Positions 3,071 through 62,717 of a stretch of 64,000 nucleotides of DNA are shown here, piece after piece. The DNA is taken from positions 20,156-84,155 of the forward strand of contig JACOZP010000008.1 of assembly GCA_016181265.1 (NCBI GenBank), in the 5' to 3' direction. The translations under genes were made by a program, and so were the position numbers. How positions within the stretch are numbered: position 1 is the first letter of the stretch; each line of letters opens with the position of its first letter. Source of the DNA: Candidatus Woesearchaeota archaeon (GTDB lineage Archaea > Nanobdellota > Nanobdellia > Woesearchaeales > GW2011-AR9). The notes under the pieces are model-generated. The model saw nothing but the letters and a program-made list of their open reading frames with translations. It had not been told where the DNA came from and made no database searches.

Positions 3071-4159
3071 TTACTCCACTTTCTTGACAATCACATTTTC
3101 GAACGCACCAGTAGCAATCATTTCCTGTGCTTTCTTGGTGAGATCATGAGAATACAAGAATAAGAGGGGAAGTTTTTTTACCTGCGCTTCCATGTAGGCA
3201 GCGGAGAGATCTTTCTCATCGCAACGAGTTTTCTTTTTTGCTTTGCAAAAATAGGTCATCTTGCCGACGACGGTGGGAACTTTGATGGAAAGATTCACTT
3301 CCGCATTTTTACGGATGATATCCTGTTCTTGGATTGTGATATTTAATTCGCGGAAGAAATGTTCTATCGTAGGAAGGAAAGTATCTGTTTTTGGGGTTAC
3401 TGTTTTCTTGGGTACAGCGGCGTTCATACCTGGTTTTTCGGCAAGGATCGTCTGAGTTTTATCAAGAATCGAAGTAAGAGAAGAGGATTTTTTGATCGAA
3501 CGAGTCTTCTTGACCGATGCAGGAACTACTGACTCAACTACCTGAACGGGAGGAGACGATTCGACAAGGTGTTCTTCCTCAGCTTTCCATTCTACTTCTA
3601 TGGGAGAAAGAGCGTGAGATGGTTCTGGAGAGAGTGTTCTGATGGGCAGCGGTTCTAGAGGAGTAGGCTCTGGAAATGGGGATTGTTCGACGGGGAGAGG
3701 TTCTTCTACTTGCGGTGGGTAAAGGATCTCGCGCACGAGATGATTTGTGGTATCATCCGGGAGCAGATGCCATTTCCAGAATAGTTCGGAACTGTCCGGG
3801 GTCCGTACTTGCAGTGGGACCGCAAAATCTCGAAGAGCACGCAGAGCAACTTTTGAGAGAAGATCTAGATCGGCCTCTCGTAAGACTCCTTCTGTCTTTA
3901 ACCGATCTAAAACTGCCATATCTTTGGGATTGAGATTGCCCGCAGCGAAGTTGTATAACTGTTCTTCTTGCCCAGGGAGATAATAGAGAGGACTGCCCCC
4001 TAACTTCAAACTGGAGATCCGAATCTTCTTCTGTGCAGCGAGGTCGGATAAGTGAGCAGAGGCGATAATGATATCCGTTTTGATGGTCTTGGCAACTTTG
4101 GTAGGAATTGTCGGTCCGGTAACGTTCAAGAATTCGAGAATTTGATCTTGGACAAGCAT
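3071..4159 (-). CDS. hypothetical protein, N-terminal winged-helix-like region, Pro/Glu-rich linker
   Basis: 362-aa ORF. N-terminal ~150 aa look like tandem wHTH (LEFLNVTGPTIPTKVAKTI..., MAVLDRLKTEGVLREADL). A TATA-like TTTAAATA lies 23-30 nt upstream of the ATG. Confidence 0.6.
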   Translation of the reverse strand: MLVQDQILEFLNVTGPTIPTKVAKTIKTDIIIASAHLSDLAAQKKIRISSLKLGGSPLYYLPGQEEQLYNFAAGNLNPKDMAVLDRLKTEGVLREADLDLLSKVALRALRDFAVPLQVRTPDSSELFWKWHLLPDDTTNHLVREILYPPQVEEPLPVEQSPFPEPTPLEPLPIRTLSPEPSHALSPIEVEWKAEEEHLVESSPPVQVVESVVPASVKKTRSIKKSSSLTSILDKTQTILAEKPGMNAAVPKKTVTPKTDTFLPTIEHFFRELNITIQEQDIIRKNAEVNLSIKVPTVVGKMTYFCKAKKKTRCDEKDLSAAYMEAQVKKLPLLFLYSHDLTKKAQEMIATGAFENVIVKKVE

Positions 4160-4189: not shown

Positions 4190-4205
4190 ATTTTTGATGG
4201 TACAG

Positions 4206-4471
4206 TCATAAAAGTGCGGGAAAGCGGCTCACCTCGCTCTAAAGCCCTAAGAAATCAGACTTGATTTCTTGGGCACAAGAAGAGTCGTTGCTTTTCTTTG
4301 TGAGCGAGGCTTGAAAAGAGACGCTTTCTAATCCCCGCACTTTGTGACATAAATAGGCTAGAAAGCCATTCGCACAGAAAGACAACGATCTTTCTGGCGT
4401 CCCAGCAAAGCTATTTCTTTGCTGAGGACATCCTCGTCTTAAAAGACGAGGCTTTCTGGCCTATTTAATGT
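4206..4471 (+). ncRNA. unclassified structured RNA, copy 1 of 2 (paralog of 61508-61877)
   Basis: Collinear with copy 2. Identical blocks: GAGCGAGGCTTGAAAAGAGACGCTTTCT, ATCCCCGCACTTTGTGACA, ATAAATAGGCTAGAAAGCCATTCGCACA, GGACATCCTCGTCTTAAAAGACGAGGCTTTCTGGCCTATTTAATGT. Long-range helices: AAAGTGCGGG/CCCGCACTTT and the 16-bp AATAGGCTAGAAAGCC/GGCTTTCTGGCCTATT. Hairpins differ between copies by compensatory changes. G-U wobbles occur only when read on the + strand. No ORF is conserved between copies. Confidence 0.7.
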
Positions 4472-4610: not shown

Positions 4611-4703
4611 ATGGCCAAACCAATGAAAAAGAGAAGAAATGACGAAGATTTCGACGATGATTCTAACGACGAAGATACGGATACCGGCGATGATTGGAAT
4701 TAA
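4611..4703 (+). CDS. small highly acidic peptide (30 aa), hypothetical
   Basis: ATG at 4611 preceded by AGGTGGGG 8-9 nt upstream (SD-like). TTTTTATATT box at about 4540. MAKPMKKRRNDEDFDDDSNDEDTDTGDDWN. The longer alt-start version in the track (4470) runs into the RNA locus. Confidence 0.35.
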   Translation: MAKPMKKRRNDEDFDDDSNDEDTDTGDDWN

Positions 4704-39300: not shown

Positions 39301-41871
39301 TTATTTAAGGATAGTTAACTGACGATAGGCGACGCTATGCAGGGAATCGTTTTTGACGAGAATCTGCACAAGATAGGTTCCGGGAATGGTCTCGGGAGGG
39401 AGGGATAATCCTACGCTAGCCAAAGTCGAACCGTTCTTGGCAACATCAAATTGTCTGGTCGACTGGATAATGCCTAACTCAGGGATCATCACGATGCCAC
39501 GAACATCTTCTGCTTTAAGCAAGGTTTCATTTTCTACCTTGATGAAGACTTGTGTTTGCCAGTTGCCGTTGACTAATTCTTCGGGAGCCAGAGTTACGGA
39601 TTTAATGAAAAAGTCAGCTGAGGCTGGTTCTTCCACGGGCGGAATTATCGGAGGTTGAACTGGCGGAACGACGGGAGGGACGATGTTATTTGTTTCATCA
39701 TTGTCTTGCGGATTAGCGCAGCCAGGATCAGCCATATCGATCAATTTGTCTCCATCATTATCTTTGCCATCAGAACATTGGGTTGTTTGAGGTGGAGGGG
39801 GTGGAGAGGTATCTCCTTTGAGCATGACACTGATCAAGACATCTTCAGAAATAGTAACAAAACCATCGTTGACGGTGAACGTAACGGTATAGAGACCAAC
39901 TTGGTCTTTCGTCGGTTTCCAAGAAAAGCCGCTCTTTGCATATGTAGCTCCATCAGGCATAGGTAAAGCAGCGTAATTCAAGGTATCGTTATCTGCATCG
40001 ATTGCCTCAACAGTAAAAGAGACAGTATCGCCAACGTAGACAATCTGGTCATCTATCGGCTTAAATTGAGGCTTTTGATTTACGTCTTTGATATTGATCA
40101 GAACATTCTTTGTTGTTTTTGCTTTCCCATCATCAGCTTCCAAAATCAGCGTGAATGAACGGCTGGTCTGAGGGTGCTTAACGAATGAATAGAGCGGTTG
40201 GAGTTGAATGGTAAATGTTCCATCATTATTATTGATTATATGGACACCTTGTCCGTTGATCGGGGCAAGATCAGGGAGGATAGGATCGGCAGAGTAGGGT
40301 GTTAAGAGGATCTTATCTCCGTTCTTATCAAAGATGGTAACAGTAAACTGTAAAAGTTTGCCTTCCATTCCAAATTGGGTGTGAAGGCTGCCGATTACGG
40401 GTAGGCTATTTGGATCTACAGGCGGAACAGGAAGGTTTGTCTCGTCATCATCTTCAGGGTTGGTACAGCCAGGATCAGCCATATCGACCAATTTGTCCCC
40501 ATCGTTATCTTTGCCATCAGAACACTGAGACGTAGGCTCGACGGGCTTTTGTTTGACGATGATCTGAACATCTTGACTGGTTTGCGCGAAACCGTCAGAG
40601 ACGGAAAATGTGATGAGATGGCTGCCGAGATCATGGAATTTTGTCTGCCACGTGAAGGCAGTTCCGTCTAGTTTTGATCCGAGAGGTGCGTTTTCCATTG
40701 CATAGGAGAGGACGTCTTCGACATCAGCATCGGTTGCGTATAAGTCAAATGAAACGGTCTCACCAGCATAGACGACAATCTGATCAGAGAACGTGACGAA
40801 AGTCGGTTTGCGATTGACATCATTGACTAAGATAGTCACAACTTTCCAATCGGAGAACATTTTTCCATCGTATGCTTTAAAGCGCAGTTGGAGCGTCTTC
40901 TGAGTTTGAGGGTGCTTGATAAAGTCGTAGTCCGGACTAAAGGTAAATACTCCTGTCTGCGAATCGAAGTGAGCACCTTCTGGAACTAGATTAGGGAATG
41001 GATTATTATCAATAGGAACACCATTTGCGACAAGTGTATGAACGTAATACGTTAATTGATCCTGCTCAGCATCAGTTCCACTGACAACATAATTGATAGT
41101 ATCACTTTCATTGACATGAAGAGCAGGGATGTTATTCATCTGAGGAGCGGTGTTCTTCGGTTCGGGAGGAGGGACATCCGGTTTTTCTTCATCAAGAACA
41201 TAAATCTGGATCGTTTCGCTATCCTCTGCTTGGCCATCGGTAACGGTGAACGTGATAGCATACGTACCAGTCTTAGAAGGGGTCCAGATGAATTTCCCAG
41301 AGCCAGAATTAAGTTTCATATTCGGCTGGAAAGAAATTGCGCCGAAGTAGAGCTTGTCATTATCAGCATCAGTTGCGGAAAGTGTAAATTGCAGCGTCTC
41401 ACCGACAGGAATGTATCGATCGCCGATCGGATTCAAGACAGGGGAATGATTTTGTGGCGCGGGAGGGGGTACTGTTTCTTCTGTTGGGTTGACGTGTAAA
41501 ATAAGCGATTCTACGTCCGAGGAGTTGTAGCTAGTGATCTTCGCTTGAATGGTATAATCTCCGAGAAGAGAGGCAGTATTTAAGGAAAGAGCCTTCGTGT
41601 ACGAATCTTGTGTTAGATTATCGACTTTTAGAAGAGTGTTGATTTTCTGGGAGCCTTTGTACAAGTCGACGACAAGGTTAAAGCTAGGAGCTAGGCTGTC
41701 CGCAGTGATCATGATCTGAGGGATGCTTCCTTGTGTAACAGTTAGTGATTGGGTATTGGCACCAACCCAATATGCGTAAAGGGAGACATTGCCTGCACTT
41801 GCAAAAGGGACTGCTGCAATGAACAGCATCAACGTCAGTACAATTCCAAATAATTTTTGTGTCATATTCAT
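39301..41871 (-). CDS. large secreted adhesin-like protein with cadherin/dystroglycan-type Ig-like repeats and two Cys/Asp-rich inserts
   Basis: Signal peptide. At least 4 repeats of the pattern P..PIGD..V.VGETL.F.V.A.DAD.D.L.Y. Two copies of QCSDGKDNDGDKL(V/I)DMADPGC(T/A)NP.D.DETN. Confidence 0.75.
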   Translation of the reverse strand: MNMTQKLFGIVLTLMLFIAAVPFASAGNVSLYAYWVGANTQSLTVTQGSIPQIMITADSLAPSFNLVVDLYKGSQKINTLLKVDNLTQDSYTKALSLNTASLLGDYTIQAKITSYNSSDVESLILHVNPTEETVPPPAPQNHSPVLNPIGDRYIPVGETLQFTLSATDADNDKLYFGAISFQPNMKLNSGSGKFIWTPSKTGTYAITFTVTDGQAEDSETIQIYVLDEEKPDVPPPEPKNTAPQMNNIPALHVNESDTINYVVSGTDAEQDQLTYYVHTLVANGVPIDNNPFPNLVPEGAHFDSQTGVFTFSPDYDFIKHPQTQKTLQLRFKAYDGKMFSDWKVVTILVNDVNRKPTFVTFSDQIVVYAGETVSFDLYATDADVEDVLSYAMENAPLGSKLDGTAFTWQTKFHDLGSHLITFSVSDGFAQTSQDVQIIVKQKPVEPTSQCSDGKDNDGDKLVDMADPGCTNPEDDDETNLPVPPVDPNSLPVIGSLHTQFGMEGKLLQFTVTIFDKNGDKILLTPYSADPILPDLAPINGQGVHIINNNDGTFTIQLQPLYSFVKHPQTSRSFTLILEADDGKAKTTKNVLINIKDVNQKPQFKPIDDQIVYVGDTVSFTVEAIDADNDTLNYAALPMPDGATYAKSGFSWKPTKDQVGLYTVTFTVNDGFVTISEDVLISVMLKGDTSPPPPPQTTQCSDGKDNDGDKLIDMADPGCANPQDNDETNNIVPPVVPPVQPPIIPPVEEPASADFFIKSVTLAPEELVNGNWQTQVFIKVENETLLKAEDVRGIVMIPELGIIQSTRQFDVAKNGSTLASVGLSLPPETIPGTYLVQILVKNDSLHSVAYRQLTILK
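39716..39780. repeat. intragenic DNA repeat copy A (Cys/Asp-rich insert)
   Basis: GCAGCCAGGATCAGCCATATCGA(T/C)CAATTTGTC(T/C)CCATC(A/G)TTATCTTTGCCATCAGAACA(T/C)TG is shared with 40463-40527. Only a few mismatches. Confidence 0.8.
40463..40527. repeat. intragenic DNA repeat copy B (Cys/Asp-rich insert)
   Basis: See copy A; same orientation, 747 bp apart, both in frame within the 856-aa ORF. Confidence 0.8.
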
Positions 41872-45029: not shown

Positions 45030-45362
45030 TTATGGTTTGCTGTTCTTTCTCTTGAGAAATCGCTGCAATGCACTTTTTGCGACGGCTAAATCATCTTCAG
45101 AAAATGTTTCCTTGCGATAGTCATTTAGTTCTGCAGCAAAACCAACAACTTGAAGATCGCGATCGTTCAAAGCAACTTTTCCGCTTTCTAACTGTTCGTT
45201 CTTCTTGAAAAAATCAGCGATAGTTTTGCCGAGTCTCTTCCGGTCAGCTTCAGGTGCACCTTGAAATTCAGTGAGGAGTTTCAACATCTTCTCTGCAAAC
45301 TCTGCACCTTGAAATTCAGTGAGGAGTTTCAACATCTTCTCTGCAAACTCCTTTTTGTTCAT
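45030..45362 (-). CDS. hypothetical small helical protein carrying a 16-aa tandem duplication
   Basis: I prefer the Met at 45362 (MNKKEFAEKML...), with an ATTTAAAT box about 30 nt upstream. The 68 extra N-terminal residues in the track ORF look non-coding. Confidence 0.5.
   Translation of the reverse strand: MNKKEFAEKMLKLLTEFQGAEFAEKMLKLLTEFQGAPEADRKRLGKTIADFFKKNEQLESGKVALNDRDLQVVGFAAELNDYRKETFSEDDLAVAKSALQRFLKRKNSKP
45255..45350. repeat. perfect 48-bp tandem direct duplication (2 copies), in frame
   Basis: TGCACCTTGAAATTCAGTGAGGAGTTTCAACATCTTCTCTGCAAACTC occurs at 45255-45302 and again at 45303-45350. It encodes EFAEKMLKLLTEFQGA twice. Confidence 0.95.
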
Positions 45363-45529
45363 TAGGTTGAGTAAGAAAAAAGAGGATTTAAATGTTTCGA
45401 AAAGAACGAGCCACTGGTCACAAAGAAAGAAACAACGCTTTCTTTCTTGTGCAGAAATATGATCGTTGTCGTATTTCTTGCACTGGACAAGTACGGGTGA
45501 ATAATATAAATCACTCATTTCTTTCAAAA

Positions 45530-45700
45530 ATGATGACCAAGAGTATAAAGAAAAGAGAAGTGACAATCTTAGAATTCCAAAGTGAAGCCGGAGTTAGGTT
45601 TAAAGTAACGCGAAGAGTGCCGGAACTACATATTGCGGAAACGATGATTTTCTCTTCAAAAGAAGAGGCAAAACAACAATTCGAAAAATGGTTACGATAA
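45530..45700 (+). CDS. small hypothetical protein (56 aa)
   Basis: ATG at 45530 with AATAATATAAAT about 25 nt upstream. MMTKSIKKREVTILEFQSEAGVRFKVTRRVPELHIAETMIFSSKEEAKQQFEKWLR. The upstream part of track ORF 45392-45700 overlaps the opposite gene and is discounted. Confidence 0.35.
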   Translation: MMTKSIKKREVTILEFQSEAGVRFKVTRRVPELHIAETMIFSSKEEAKQQFEKWLR

Positions 45701-60625: not shown

Positions 60626-61501
60626 TTGGTATTAGAACATCTTTTTCCTGAAGACTGGTTAGAAAAGCGGGGAGTGTACGCGTTTATTTTAGGAGCAGTT
60701 TATTCAGTAGTGGGAGTTCTTGTCGCATCTGTGCTTTTTCCAAAAGATCCGGCACTGGTGGGAGTGGCGTTGACGTCTATGTTAATTCTCCCGGAGATGT
60801 ACAAGATATTTTCATACCAAGAAAGACAACAAAGCTTAGAACAGAAGACAACATTTCTTTCTCTTTGGAAAAATGACATTGAAATTGTACGAATCTATGT
60901 ATTTATGTTTTTGGGAATTATCTTGATTTACTCTGTAGGGACAATGATTCTTCCCAGTATCCAGACAAACGAATTATTTAGGGAACAGTTAGAAATCCGT
61001 TTTGGGGAAGGCTTTGCAGGTAATGCAGTTGCTAGCGGCCTTTTTGAGAGTGGTTTATTCATAGAATTGCTGAGTAATAATTTACTGGTCATGATTGCCT
61101 GTTTTATAATGGCATTGCTGACAGGGGATGGAGCAGTCTTTTTGATTATCTGGAATGGATCAGTGTGGGGAACAATCTTTGGGATCACGGCGAAGAATGC
61201 AGCATCATTTTCAGGAGCGAATGTGATTTACATCTTTGGGATTGTCATGCTCATCGTTTTCCCACATATGATCATTGAAGGGATCTGCTATTTTTTGGCA
61301 GCGATCGCTGGTTCGCTGATATCAAAAGATGTTATTCTAGAGAAGTTTGCTTCCGATCGGTTCTTTAGGGTCTTTGGGTTTAATCTTTATCTTGTTGTGT
61401 TTGCGTTGCTGTTCTTGATATTAGGAGCGGCGGTAGAAGCGTTTGTCTTAGATAATGTGGATATCTATACGGAAATAGTTAGACAGAGTTTATTGGCGTA
61501 G
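60626..61501 (+). CDS. SpoIIM/DUF95-family integral membrane protein
   Basis: About 6 TM. VFPHMIIEGICYFLAAIAG resembles the DUF95 PHGxxE motif. TTG start with a TATAAA box about 40 nt upstream. Confidence 0.6.
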   Translation: MVLEHLFPEDWLEKRGVYAFILGAVYSVVGVLVASVLFPKDPALVGVALTSMLILPEMYKIFSYQERQQSLEQKTTFLSLWKNDIEIVRIYVFMFLGIILIYSVGTMILPSIQTNELFREQLEIRFGEGFAGNAVASGLFESGLFIELLSNNLLVMIACFIMALLTGDGAVFLIIWNGSVWGTIFGITAKNAASFSGANVIYIFGIVMLIVFPHMIIEGICYFLAAIAGSLISKDVILEKFASDRFFRVFGFNLYLVVFALLFLILGAAVEAFVLDNVDIYTEIVRQSLLA

Positions 61502-61507
61502 AGAGTC

Positions 61508-61877
61508 TCATAAAAGTGCGGGAACATGAAAACTGACGACGATCAGTTTTCTGTTCAGAAATGCAATATTATTTACATTTCTTGAAAGCGTCTCACTTCG
61601 CTCTAAAGTCCTGAGAATTGCCGTGCAATTCTGGGACGCAAGAAAATGATTTTTCTTCGCGAGCGAGGCTTGAAAAGAGACGCTTTCTGATCCCCGCACT
61701 TTGTGACACAAGAAGGACAAGTCCTTCTGTGCAAACAGACAATGTCTGTTTTGCATAAATAGGCTAGAAAGCCATTCGCACAATGAAACAAAGATTTCAT
61801 TGGCGTCCCAGTGAAATATCATATTCACTGTGGACATCCTCGTCTTAAAAGACGAGGCTTTCTGGCCTATTTAATGT
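61508..61877 (+). ncRNA. unclassified structured RNA, copy 2 of 2 (expanded paralog of 4206-4471)
   Basis: Same ordered conserved blocks and helices as copy 1, plus about 62-nt and about 46-nt insertions. Each insertion folds into two self-contained hairpins (e.g. GAAAACTGA/TCAGTTTTC, AGAAATG/CATTTCT, AGAAGGAC/GTCCTTCT). A T-rich tract follows the 3' end. Confidence 0.7.
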
Positions 61878-61898
61878 AACTTTATTTCTCATTGCATC

Positions 61899-62717
61899 TT
61901 ATTTCTCATGTGGTTTGCAAACATCATAGAAATCACATTTACCCGTAGACCATTTGCAGAGGGACGTGATGGTTTTAGGGTAATCTTCTTTCTGTTCGGT
62001 GGAACTTGTATGCTTATGGATCTCTTCGATTTCTTTCCTTGCAAGATCGAGGAGAGGCTCGTCAACATTCATCAGCTTCAGCTTATGACGAAGGAAAAAG
62101 ATACCCACTTTGGAAGGCATTTTCCCATGCTTTTCGAAATAAAGAAGAGAGTATATCGCTAATTGAAGCCGGATGCTCTCTTTCATCTCAAACGTAGAGT
62201 TAGTCTTGTAATCAATGATGTGGACTTCGTCATCAACGTGGTGAATAGCATCAATGAATCCACGGACGGAACGTCCTTCGGACGCATATTCTTGTTCACG
62301 GACAGGAGTCAGTTCTAAGAACGCTTCCTGCACGGAAATATTCTTTTTTTTCAGGAGGATGGACAGATCTTCGACAAAGTGATTTGTCCAATTCATGAGC
62401 ATAAGCATTGTCTCTTCGAAGTAAAAGCGTTCCTGGTCAGGGCTCAGTTGGAGCAGTCGGAGTTTTTCTTGGTATTGTTTCCAATAATGAAGAAAAAAAG
62501 TTTGGATGCTCTCCTTGCATTTACGCGCAAAATTCTCTTCGGTAAGTTGATGAGTGTCAAGATTATAGAAGTTTTCTAGCGTAGAGTGAGCAATATTACC
62601 CCGAACCTGATGAATATTGGCTTGAGTTGGTAGTTTCTCGATGTATTGATAATAATATTTCCGCTTGCACTGCTTGAATGTGTTGATTGATGAGGGGGAT
62701 TCTATTCTTTTTGCCAT
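61899..62717 (-). CDS. Cas4/RecB-like PD-(D/E)XK nuclease with 4-Cys cluster
   Basis: N-terminal FKQCKRKYYY and C-terminal CKWSTGKCDFYDVC (C...CxxxxxCxxxxxC arrangement). IDAIH...IIDYK core. No CRISPR or other cas genes in the window. Confidence 0.7.
   Translation of the reverse strand: MAKRIESPSSINTFKQCKRKYYYQYIEKLPTQANIHQVRGNIAHSTLENFYNLDTHQLTEENFARKCKESIQTFFLHYWKQYQEKLRLLQLSPDQERFYFEETMLMLMNWTNHFVEDLSILLKKKNISVQEAFLELTPVREQEYASEGRSVRGFIDAIHHVDDEVHIIDYKTNSTFEMKESIRLQLAIYSLLYFEKHGKMPSKVGIFFLRHKLKLMNVDEPLLDLARKEIEEIHKHTSSTEQKEDYPKTITSLCKWSTGKCDFYDVCKPHEK

Follow-up and report, generated by a model that had tools for sequence, protein, structure and literature searches.

What is the strongly folded sequence that separates two convergent genes in this 64,000-nt stretch of Candidatus Woesearchaeota DNA (the window), and what are the hairpins by which it differs from a second copy in the same stretch? 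A reading made from the sequence alone had proposed a conserved RNA scaffold, comparable to RNase P or SRP RNA, in which one copy had grown expansion segments. Of that interpretation, the scaffold, whose helices covary, and the modular insertions stood, but a vertically inherited RNA gene growing expansion segments did not. The element looks mobile and mosaic rather than like a conserved RNA gene, and the locus is probably a copy of a non-coding mosaic repeat that is multi-copy, insertion-polymorphic and non-autonomous and belongs to the Woesearchaeota, a group of DPANN archaea.

Two copies of one element in the window

Sequence comparison agreed that the window contains two copies of one element (Table 1), which constitute its sole long dispersed repeat. 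Copy 2 takes up nearly all of the 397 nt that separate two convergent genes, SpoIIM and PD-(D/E)XK, whose ends lie where the sequence-only reading had placed them; the two minus-strand ORFs that it had listed likewise exist in copy 2 and lack a counterpart in copy 1. Copy 1 is neighboured by a divergent gene for a conserved 362-aa protein on one side and a 30-aa ORF on the other. Both copies interrupt the Logan assemblies of this organism.

Compared with copy 1, copy 2 contains two extra blocks, one directly 3′ of GTGCGGGAA (cassette A) and one directly 3′ of TTTGTGACA (cassette D). Their measured lengths of 62 and 47 nt match the claimed values of about 62 and 46 nt, and both fold into the hairpins that had been listed, two per block. 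Copy 1 is not itself the bare scaffold, as the minimal form found in relatives is shorter still: measured against it, copy 1 already carries two cassettes and copy 2 carries four. Decomposition against the minimal copies also bore out that the insertions are modular, sit at junctions or loops and leave the core helices intact.

Domain 1 (D1) of copy 2 is built from the helices P1, P2 and P3; its internal loop CTTGAAAA and its bulge CTGATC are conserved. Domain 2 (D2) has a closing helix TAAATAGGC/GCCTATTTA, an inner helix AGAAAGCC/GGCTTTCT, an apical hairpin CCTCGTCTT-AA-AAGACGAGG and the 3′ tail AATGTA. The shared helices were recovered in the MFE folds of both copies, at −133.8 kcal/mol (z = −13.2) for copy 1 and −169.5 kcal/mol (z = −15.3) for copy 2, and in neither case did any shuffled sequence fold as well. 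Three of the cassette sites of copy 2 are filled in other loci too: site A, with the same type of cassette, in L012, L024, L048, L085 and L094; site D in L003, L013, L019, L020, L045, L085 and L093; and site E in L012, L019, L020, L050, L057, L075 and L076. Site B was filled only in the two window copies in this data set, and the minimal copies have CTCTAAAGAGCGAGG there.

Table 1. Positions of the element copies, their parts and their surroundings in the window
Feature	Position	Strand	Description
Copy 2 of element	61505-61878	+	374 nt; core of ~140 nt plus four twin-hairpin cassettes
D1, copy 2	61505-61708	+	Core parts 61505-61524, 61587-61608, 61662-61708
Cassette A, copy 2	61525-61586	+	62 nt; after GGGAA, P1/P2 junction; loops CGACGA, TATTAT; R2 match 74.3 bits
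Cassette B, copy 2	61609-61661	+	53 nt; apical loop of D1 helix P3
Cassette D, copy 2	61709-61755	+	47 nt; inter-domain linker, after GTGACA; 26.7 bits
D2, copy 2	61756-61878	+	Core parts 61756-61777, 61836-61878
Cassette E, copy 2	61778-61835	+	58 nt; D2 internal loop between ATTC/ATCC; 33.3 bits
Copy 1 of element	4205-4471	+	267 nt; core plus cassettes B and E; R1 match 110 bits
Cassette B, copy 1	4245-4302	+	By decomposition against minimal copies
Cassette E, copy 1	4372-4429	+	By decomposition against minimal copies
Element ends			Extreme sequences: 5′ CATGAAAG, 3′ TTTTAATGT
Solo cassette	45419-45481	none assigned	Intergenic; flanks CACTGGTC, CACTGGAC; R2 78.2 bits (+), 65.4 bits (−)
SpoIIM/DUF95 gene	stop at 61501		Flanks copy 2
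PD-(D/E)XK (Cas4/Dna2-like) gene	end at 61899	−	Flanks copy 2
ORFs of 109 aa and 65 aa	inside copy 2	−	No counterpart in copy 1

The core family and its twin-hairpin cassettes

A 20-mer from D1 matched 22 loci, in the genomes of about 14 Nanoarchaeota/Woesearchaeota species, at 1-3 or more copies per MAG and frequently at contig ends, and a looser pattern matched 72 metagenome loci, 5 of them chance matches. The pattern scan of Woesearchaeota/Nanoarchaeota MAGs and groundwater metagenomes located the element about 95 times, spread over about 90 loci; some single contigs carry 2-4 copies. The claim of a conserved folded scaffold was thereby borne out in many genomes. Among 61 unique full-length copies, 44 were 137-160 nt long and 17 were 194-480 nt long. 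Relatives usually (44 of 61) have just a core of about 140 nt, in which D1 (~87 nt) and D2 (~50-60 nt) each form one long, imperfect hairpin. The core is conserved, the sequences of its unpaired loops and bulges included, between species with protein identities of just 60-90%; the conservation of the D1 loop, like the breadth of the family, is biased by how members were found, since the pattern searches demanded that loop sequence. Copies in one genome can have derived variants or cassette states in common, as in L003/L004, L006/L007, L021/L024 and at the B site of the window.

Known RNA families did not account for the element. Rfam 15 (including RNase P, SRP, 6S, HEARO, OLE, GOLLD and ROOL) at the gathering threshold matched only a tRNA-Trp in the window; E-value scans with each copy, in either orientation, returned noise (E of at least 0.38, far below gathering scores), and 19 related loci gave two tRNAs and nothing else. 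Viral contigs, plasmids and phages contained no match to the core patterns or to copy 1, and a literature search by sequence strings and topic found no account of the element. One census counts 105 MITEs per Mb in a Woesearchaea genome, among the highest values in archaea (PMC11602168).

What sets the larger copies apart from the minimal ones is a series of clean 46-64-nt insertions, which recur at no fewer than six core sites. Each such cassette is a twin hairpin that twice follows the order AGAAA, variable stem, conserved loop, stem, TTTCT; the loops and the stem bases are conserved and the stems vary, remaining almost perfectly Watson-Crick. In every hairpin, on both strands, the 5′ arm is rich in purines and the 3′ arm in T. 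The cassette subtype is specific to each site. A covariance model of the cassette found members both inside elements and outside them. Its 7 matches in the window comprise 6 inside the two copies and the solo cassette, and the other loci gave about 27 within elements and about 18 outside. Some of those outside sit in a second repeat family, which is itself inserted into D2 in L090. In L019 a cassette lies within a cassette, and L017 contains a solo cassette with the same flanks as that of the window. All copies and cassettes found are intergenic or within other repeats. What had been called expansion segments is therefore a twin-hairpin repeat that also occurs solo, in another repeat family and nested in itself. 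An archaeal intron of the bulge-helix-bulge type was rejected for the cassettes by eye, as their junctions show no such pairing. The basic unit is probably the core of about 140 nt, to which the smaller repeat has been added at defined junctions and loops.

Occupied and empty sites, and pairing of the helices

In the closest relatives, whose neighbouring proteins are 92%, 86% and 74% identical, gene order is kept and neither window site is occupied. At the site of copy 2, L097 has a spacer of 9 nt and L098 one of 31 nt, neither with the element, and the site of copy 1 is empty in L102; the core model found no match in the loci of the empty-site relatives, which were read from assemblies including SRR22388213 and GCA_016203205.1. 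Because the nearest relatives lack the element at both sites, the copies there are not essential. Elsewhere in the family, L009 and L062 are each filled where the other is empty, on opposite sides of a common gene and in opposite orientation, and L007 and L019 differ in the position and orientation of the element beside orthologous genes. Direct repeats bounding a 57-kb island were rejected, as gene order is unbroken across the site of copy 2 in relatives.

These observations do not fit the analogy with RNase P or SRP RNA. The element resembles these RNAs, and the expansion segments of rRNA, in having hairpin modules at loops and junctions with the core helices intact. In contrast to such essential, vertically inherited RNAs with stable loci, it is dispensable at both window sites, multi-copy, variable in position and orientation beside orthologous genes, and made of modules that also occur solo elsewhere in the genome.

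The helices of the core nevertheless covary. In the 43 distinct minimal D1 sequences on which the structure is based, 97.4% of helix cells were paired and 10 pairs had changed on both sides. The covariation score was 0.153 compared with 0.065 for shuffles, none of 500 shuffles scored as high, and slid controls reached at most 57% paired. In D2 both sides had changed in 10 of 21 pairs. This covariation applies equally to a DNA hairpin and to an RNA.

A family of functional trans-acting structured-RNA genes, themselves mobile or often duplicated, would have the core as a scaffold (for example for protein binding) and the cassettes as tolerated or useful peripheral parts. Beyond the covariation of all core helices, such genes would account for the very stable folds of both copies, the sparing of core helices by insertions, the conserved unpaired TCTCACC, CTTGAAAA, CTAATC bulge, ATTCAT and AATGTA tail, and the conservation of cassette loops whose stems vary. 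Also in favour are a U·G pair that 36 of 43 sequences conserve at the + strand base of P1 and a 2:1 excess of copies with the orientation of the flanking genes. We consider this explanation unlikely, however. With the conserved U·G set aside, the D1 mismatches comprise 15 G·U cells and 20 A·C cells, and because the two are balanced an RNA is not specifically supported; the pairing pattern fits maintenance of a hairpin at the DNA level at least as well. In cassettes within elements the stem pairs are almost devoid of G·U (287 Watson-Crick, 4 G·U, 2 A·C), and the cassette model scores nearly equally on the two strands. The earlier argument that intact helices betray selection on an RNA scaffold is not supported by these counts. 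Furthermore, neither an upstream TATA box at a fixed distance nor a consistent downstream T-run was found, the lack of Rfam matches holds for either strand, and the empty sites of the nearest relatives speak against an essential gene. A kissing-loop interaction was not supported either: although the loops are complementary (CAACGA/TCGTTG and AAACTA/TAGTTT), every one of the four loop combinations is found, so that the loops of the two cassette hairpins do not covary. Reading D1 as an H/ACA, C/D or K-turn RNA fared no better; an ACA follows D1, but there is no pseudouridylation pocket, there are no C/D boxes and the non-bulged strand is without the GA that a K-turn requires.

Ends, mobilization and known relatives

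The element begins with D1 at its 5′ end and has a sharply defined 3′ end (AATGTA), 5-6 nt beyond D2, after which the flank varies. Each domain by itself is a long inverted repeat, and the extreme ends have only about 8-9 imperfect bases in common (CATGAAAG versus the complement of CTTTTAATG). No direct repeat indicative of a target-site duplication was found in 63 distinct flank pairs. Of four filled-versus-empty comparisons, two left at most the dinucleotide GT and two had flanks too diverged to read. An 8-bp candidate duplication at L009, TTTTTAAA, was rejected as the repeat is already present in the empty site; another, CACTGGAC, around the solo cassettes, likewise looked like a duplication. 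A search for a fixed 4-5-nt target 5′ of the element found none, positions −1 to −3 being merely A-rich, and the constant GT at the left end is part of P1. Copies on one contig have the same direction, and orientation has no relation to local GC skew (40 versus 35).

A mobile repeat of this kind would probably spread non-autonomously, through an enzyme encoded elsewhere. Among the ORF neighbours of about 95 copies there was no recurrent family, and no transposase, TnpA/TnpB or recombinase adjoined any copy; nor did a multi-copy ORF family emerge from about 630 kb of locus sequence, which sampled the flanks of element copies and included 143 ORFs of 300-520 aa. Our best guess is that mobilization acts on single-stranded hairpin DNA, as in the IS200/IS605 PATE or REP-like type, because the element has terminal hairpins, no target-site duplication, a head-to-tail junction and co-oriented copies. 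The IS200/IS605 variant is weakened by the lack of a conserved 4-5-nt 5′ target. The near-perfect and fast-changing cassette stems may be kept paired by DNA processes rather than by selection on RNA, and template switching inside the hairpin or exchange between cassettes are candidates. Further observations weigh against a mobile repeat. A core conserved down to its unpaired nucleotides, with covarying helices, would also be expected of a functional RNA, and the cassettes cluster strongly at cores or in their vicinity (6 of 7 cassettes in the window) with site-specific subtypes, which could reflect a few old events plus recombination instead of free transposition.

A derivative of a guide-RNA transposon, either TnpB/IscB (reRNA/omega-RNA) or IS110 (bridge RNA), reduced to its RNA scaffold and ends and with its enzyme elsewhere, would likewise be a mobile, multi-copy, two-domain structured non-coding unit with a sharp 3′ end. 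GT stands at both junctions (GT/CAT...AAT/GT, the slash marking the junction), recalling a common core dinucleotide, and a head-to-tail junction (...TTTTAAT/GTCATG) lies upstream of the L014/L041 copies. In addition, two internal sequences, CTTGAAAAG in the D1 loop and the stretch TTTCTAAT, resemble the ends CATGAAAG and TTTTAAT, a likeness that may be coincidence in A/T- and GAAA-rich sequence. We find such an origin very improbable, as no TnpB, IscB or IS110-like ORF adjoins any of the copies, the loci hold no recurrent ORF family, HEARO and related Rfam models gave no match, and the bulge stays constant whatever the type of 3′ end. HEARO/IscB omega-RNA and TnpB reRNA are like the element in being multi-copy, mobile and structured, with covarying helices and sharp ends, but the copies of the element adjoin no nuclease gene, match no Rfam model and show no clear strand signal.

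A domesticated cis element, acting as a two-way terminator or insulator or as an mRNA-stabilizing 3′ structure with the intergenic placement of REP/BIME, is highly unlikely. In its favour, copies directly follow stop codons or provide them (the upstream gene often ends at the TGA of GTCATGA, and a convergent downstream gene at a TAA read from the complement of TTAATGT). They also precede the TATA box that belongs to the next gene, have the same arm composition on both strands and, for copy 2, stand between convergent genes. Against it, relatives manage without the element at the same sites, and 15 of 59 copies separate genes that start divergently, a position in which termination would serve no obvious purpose. 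A terminator would also need no such conserved core sequence, and archaeal termination requires oligo-T tracts, not hairpins. Speculatively, a read-through transcript of the mobile repeat might still form very stable hairpins and so act as a terminator or insulator.

As it stands, the element is an uncharacterized family of a familiar class. REP/BIME sequences are recognized as palindromes of 20-40 nt with a 5′ GTAG or CGTC tag and a link to a RAYT gene. The hairpin units of the element start with AGAAA instead, GTAG occurs only inside some loops, and no link to RAYT was seen. With the BIME/REP of enterobacteria and the BOX element of S. pneumoniae (boxA-boxB(n)-boxC) it has in common that it is short, conserved, non-coding, intergenic and multi-copy, combines a few module types in varying number, forms very stable hairpins, varies in presence between close relatives and has no gene of its own. 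In contrast to these, it occurs in DPANN archaea, its modules are inserted inside a folded core and can nest whereas those of BOX and BIME are strung end to end, and its cassette stems are free to vary while the loops are conserved. This comparison draws on PMC3733652, PMC3184786 and PMC10969869, along with what is generally known of those families.

The PATEs, non-autonomous relatives of IS200/IS605, resemble the element in their hairpins near both ends, lack of classical terminal inverted repeats and of target-site duplication, head-to-tail junctions, co-oriented copies per contig, small size and lack of ORFs. Unlike PATEs, the element has no 4-5-nt target 5′ of its left end, where only the paired GT is constant, no Y1 transposase was identified in the sampled flanks of its copies, and its hairpins greatly exceed the usual subterminal palindromes (about 20 nt) in length and complexity. 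Classical DDE-derived MITEs are similarly multi-copy and insertion-polymorphic but have a target-site duplication, which was not seen for the element. The RPEs of Rickettsia and the Correia elements of Neisseria are also small palindromic mobile repeats that occupy tight spots and can provide stop codons, and RPEs insert within functional RNAs or proteins without destroying them, in which we see a further likeness. The Correia elements, however, are bounded by clear terminal inverted repeats and duplicate a TA, and RPEs insert into genes in frame; neither trait was seen for the element.

We give a slim chance to two more novel interpretations: that the core is a mobile, ORF-less functional RNA, or that the cassettes mark an undescribed mechanism of hairpin-DNA insertion. 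The former could be a guide- or bridge-like scaffold for a nuclease or recombinase whose gene lies at another place in the reduced DPANN genome; the latter could target the junctions of other folded repeats and keep fast-changing stems perfectly paired. Either would amount to new mobile-element biology in archaea. If the core were transcribed and protein-bound, it would be among the first lineage-specific structured RNAs of Woesearchaeota, and if the cassettes moved by a mechanism of their own, that mechanism would be one not yet described. The family also carries a caution, as its perfect 'compensatory' stems mimic a selected RNA, yet even close relatives differ in whether they have the element, and no clear strand signal was seen. 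Since DPANN genomes are tiny and compact, a repeat that fills spacers and breaks assemblies bears on both the quality of their MAGs and the evolution of their genomes.

Two copies of one element and their neighbourhood

Exact matches to GTGCGGGAA lie at only two places in the window, 4214 and 61516, and alignment confirmed two copies of one element on the + strand, copy 1 at 4205-4471 and copy 2 at 61505-61878. The pair is the sole long dispersed repeat of the window. The sequence-only reading had described copy 2 as a conserved RNA scaffold carrying expansion segments like those of RNase P or SRP RNA. Its structural part held: copy 2 has two extra blocks relative to copy 1 (Table), both fold into the two hairpins that had been named, and the shared helices return in the minimum-free-energy folds of both copies (z = -13.2 and -15.3). 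The neighbours of copy 2 were also as described, on one side a SpoIIM/DUF95 gene that ends at 61501, on the other a PD-(D/E)XK (Cas4/Dna2-like) gene with its stop at 61899.

The DNA is archaeal. The window encodes FEN1/XPG and a tRNA-splicing endonuclease, a contig of the same organism reaching past the window end encodes eIF-1A, and the closest homologues of the window proteins are labelled Woesearchaeota or Nanoarchaeota. Adjoining copy 1 is a gene for a 362-aa protein with no Pfam domain, widely conserved in Woesearchaeota with or without the element. A 30-aa ORF at 4612-4703 (MAKPMKKRRNDEDFDDDSNDEDTDTGDDWN; basic N terminus, very acidic remainder) comes with Shine-Dalgarno-like and TATA-like signals of its own and probably encodes a real small protein, as it is kept beside the same genes in the related contig L102 (3766-3858).

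The element breaks assemblies. Short-read contigs of the same organism (Logan SRR12113430) terminate no more than a few dozen bases from copies 2 and 1 (end of L001, start of L002), and many family members in MAGs are located at contig ends.

A minimal core and its twin-hairpin cassettes

A 20-mer from domain D1 matched 22 loci in ~14 species-representative MAGs, all labelled Nanoarchaeota/Woesearchaeota except three bins labelled Methanosarcinales. Each MAG held one to three or more copies, many at contig ends; these numbers are lower bounds because MAG and metagenome assemblies break at repeats. A looser pattern gave 72 metagenome loci, mostly from groundwater, five of them chance matches. 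Most collected copies were only ~140 nt long: among 61 distinct full-length copies, 44 measured 137-160 nt and 17 measured 194-480 nt, with copy 2 the second largest in the data set. The insertions claimed for copy 2 are real, but copy 1 itself carries two when compared with the minimal copies. Copy 1 is not the bare scaffold, and the minimal ~140-nt core is the commoner form among the collected copies.

The core fold is well supported. Across 43 distinct minimal sequences, 97.4% of D1 cells were standard pairs and 10 of 33 pairs had changes on both sides; 0 of 500 shuffles reached these values, and sliding the partners lowered pairing to 36-57%. For D2, both-side changes were seen in 10 of 21 pairs. 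In divergent members the D1 helices P1, P2 and P3 change in concert (for example AATAGGCGGG/CCCGCCTATT, AAATCG/CGATTT and CCACGGAC/GTCCGTGG), and the unpaired TCTCACC and ATTCAT and the AATGTA tail are kept. Because the searches were anchored on D1 sequence, they bias the conservation estimates and miss divergent members. The CTTGAAAA loop was itself a search requirement, so no conservation estimate applies to it. At L039 (2533-2865, -), a divergent full element (AAAAATGCGTGAAACCATCC...TTTCTAAGGATGGTT...) devoid of the anchor loop CTTGAAAAGAGAC comes immediately after a standard D1, which indicates a family broader than the one sampled.

Pairwise alignment of long copies with the nearest short copy revealed clean 46-64-nt insertions at recurring sites (Table). 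These cassettes consist of two hairpins, each built as AGAAA-stem-loop-stem-TTTCT. The stem bases are conserved, and so are the loops (mostly CAACGA or AAACTA in hairpin 1, TAGTTT or TCGTTG in hairpin 2); the stems themselves are freely variable yet perfectly paired. A covariance model built from 11 cassettes found seven matches in the window, six within copies 1 and 2 and one solo intergenic cassette at 45419-45481. In the related loci it found ~27 distinct cassettes inside elements and ~18 outside, as tallied by hand. Several of the latter sit within a second conserved repeat (L013, L016, L090) laid out as ...ACGCTGAGAATTCCAC...GGTTTGCAAACAAACCAC..ATTAGTGGAATTCTTG, cassette, GTGCTCAAAATTAGGCTGG...CTATTTTGACAT, which was searched for in the window and not found. 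In L090 this second repeat is itself inserted in D2 of a core element, and in L019 one cassette is nested within another. Occurring solo, nested and inside a second repeat, the supposed expansion segments form a separate repeat family.

Cassette subtype tends to be site-specific, and site B is filled in both window copies and in no other copy of the data set. Part of the cassette pattern therefore reflects descent and recombination among copies, not repeated fresh insertion. Homologous cassette stems differ greatly between copies 1 and 2, whereas their cores differ at ~2% of positions.

The solo window cassette lies upstream of a small + strand ORF, in a promoter-proximal spacer, and its flanks (45408-45488) are CACTGGTC and CACTGGAC. 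In L017, both flanks of a solo cassette (3995-4057) read CACTGGAC, an octamer that recurs nearby in that locus; it could serve as a preferred target, or it could belong to a further repeat.

Other repeats were observed alongside. About 70 nt from the solo window cassette, 45255-45350 is an exact tandem duplication (2 x 48 nt, 100% identical) encoding an in-frame 16-aa repeat (EFAEKMLKLLTEFQGA) within minus-strand ORF 45030-45566, of which only ~45030-45365 looks coding. A 92-nt direct repeat, 85% identical (39689-39780 and 40436-40527, 747 nt apart), lies inside an 856-aa minus-strand ORF (39301-41871) and is probably an internal protein repeat. Several loci have a ~30-nt repeat directly next to the element, in either orientation (TTAAGTTGATGGGCGCCCTTCTGTGAGTAT or its complement): downstream in L037, L048 and L072, and on either side in L068, L079 and L089. 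L063 (639-910, -) contains a tRNA with anticodon CAT, detected by Rfam and missed by ARAGORN, whose ~46-nt intron has a hairpin beginning with GTCATGAAAAC, as the element does at its 5' end; upstream, the 5' half of the tRNA is partly duplicated, and a twin-hairpin cassette separates this duplicate from the tRNA.

Table. Minimal element, cassette insertions and second repeat family
Feature	Location	Detail
D1 of minimal element		GTCATGAAAGTGCGGGAAAGCGTCTCACCTCGCTCTAAAGAGCGAGGCTTGAAAAGAGACGCTTTCTAATCCCCGCACTTTGTGACA
D2 of minimal element		50-60-nt hairpin, end TTTAATGTA
Insertion site	3' of GGGAA	
Insertion site	D1 apical loop	
Insertion site	3' of GAGACGC	
Insertion site	3' of GTGACA	
Insertion site	D2, between ATTC and ATCC	
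Insertion site	3' of D2 apical hairpin	
Copy 1 insertion, 1 of 2	4245-4302	vs minimal copies
Copy 1 insertion, 2 of 2	4372-4429	vs minimal copies
Copy 2 insertion, 1 of 4	61525-61586	vs minimal copies; 62 nt extra vs copy 1, 3' of GTGCGGGAA
Copy 2 insertion, 2 of 4	61609-61661	vs minimal copies
Copy 2 insertion, 3 of 4	61709-61755	vs minimal copies; 47 nt extra vs copy 1, 3' of TTTGTGACA
Copy 2 insertion, 4 of 4	61778-61835	vs minimal copies
Second repeat family	L013 7140-7335	hosts twin-hairpin cassettes
Second repeat family	L016 1985-2230 (-)	hosts twin-hairpin cassettes
Second repeat family	L090 985-1245	hosts twin-hairpin cassettes

Presence and absence in close relatives

Comparison with relatives was decisive. 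The two proteins closest to the PD-(D/E)XK protein (92% and 86% identity) are encoded on contigs that share the window's gene order of CDP-alcohol phosphatidyltransferase, PD-(D/E)XK nuclease and SpoIIM; SpoIIM is followed directly by LemA and an M48 peptidase in L097, and by one extra ORF before LemA in L098. The convergent genes are 9 nt apart in L097 and 31 nt apart in L098, as against 397 nt in the window. The 362-aa protein has a relative that is 74% identical, with the same neighbours and from the same sample as L097. At the copy 1 site the flanks are identical as far as ...TTTAAATAATTTTTGATGGTACAGT, after which the relative reads TATACTAGCC and the window CATAAAAGTG...TTTAATGT GATAATAGC. 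The core model detected zero copies anywhere in those relatives' loci.

Position and orientation also shift. L009 and L062 have three neighbouring genes in common (71-91% protein identity), but the element lies to one side of the middle gene in L009 and, inverted, to the other side in L062, each locus being empty where the other is filled; in L007 and L019 it lies upstream of the same gene in opposite orientations. Absence at both window sites in close relatives, together with these shifts, speaks against a vertically inherited RNA gene. No target-site duplication was visible in flanks or between filled and empty sites. The element often supplies stop codons: the TGA of its GTCATGA to the upstream gene and, from the complement of TTAATGT, the TAA to a convergent downstream gene. 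All copies sharing a contig were co-oriented (five independent contigs, with 1, 2, 1, 1 and 1 extra copies), and orientation was unrelated to local GC skew.

RNA gene or DNA hairpin

The evidence does not identify the element as RNA. A U·G pair at the P1 base is conserved on the + strand in 36 of 43 sequences; with this pair set aside, single-sided mismatches in D1 comprised 15 G·U and 20 A·C cells, a balance expected from unselected transitions or from structure mattering on both strands. Stems of 25 cassettes, read on the element's strand, contained 287 Watson-Crick, 4 G·U, 2 A·C and 1 other pairs, and the cassette model scored nearly equally on both strands (for example 78.2 versus 65.4 bits). 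TATA-like boxes lie at varying distances upstream, no constant T-run follows across the copies compared, and no Rfam family matches the window copies or related loci. It is possible that the mobile unit carries a functional RNA, because unpaired nucleotides are conserved.

Most likely the element is a non-coding, multi-copy, insertion-polymorphic mosaic repeat, whose folded core carries a smaller twin-hairpin repeat in variable number. It would move by a mechanism handling single-stranded hairpin DNA, as for IS200/IS605-derived PATEs or REP-type elements. This is suggested by a hairpin at either end, the lack of duplication and of clear terminal repeats, co-orientation on contigs and a head-to-tail junction (...TTTTAAT|GTCATG) upstream of the L014 and L041 copies; the mechanism is a guess, since there is no fixed target sequence and no enzyme identified. 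Beyond orthologues on overlapping or related contigs, no recurrent ORF family lies beside the element, and the 143 distinct ORFs of 300-520 aa from all loci included no multi-copy family such as a transposase or TnpB would give. Pairing of stems may be kept at the DNA level, by template switching within the quasi-palindrome or by exchange between cassettes, and we infer that such hairpin upkeep accounts for the stem divergence between copies 1 and 2.

A literature search by sequence and topic returned no publication describing the element. Its nearest known counterparts are mosaic repeats of bacteria (BOX, BIME/REP), PATEs and palindromic elements of the RPE/Correia type. The element lacks the target duplication that defines a classical MITE and the tag that defines a REP, and unlike guide-RNA scaffolds it does not adjoin a transposon nuclease or recombinase. 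It fits PATEs in its hairpin ends and absence of duplication but not in their fixed target. For one Woesearchaea genome, a 2024 census noted a very high density of MITEs (PMC11602168). The present family is unusual in that its cassettes are inserted at the junctions of a folded core, and in that their stems change quickly yet pair perfectly beside conserved loops.
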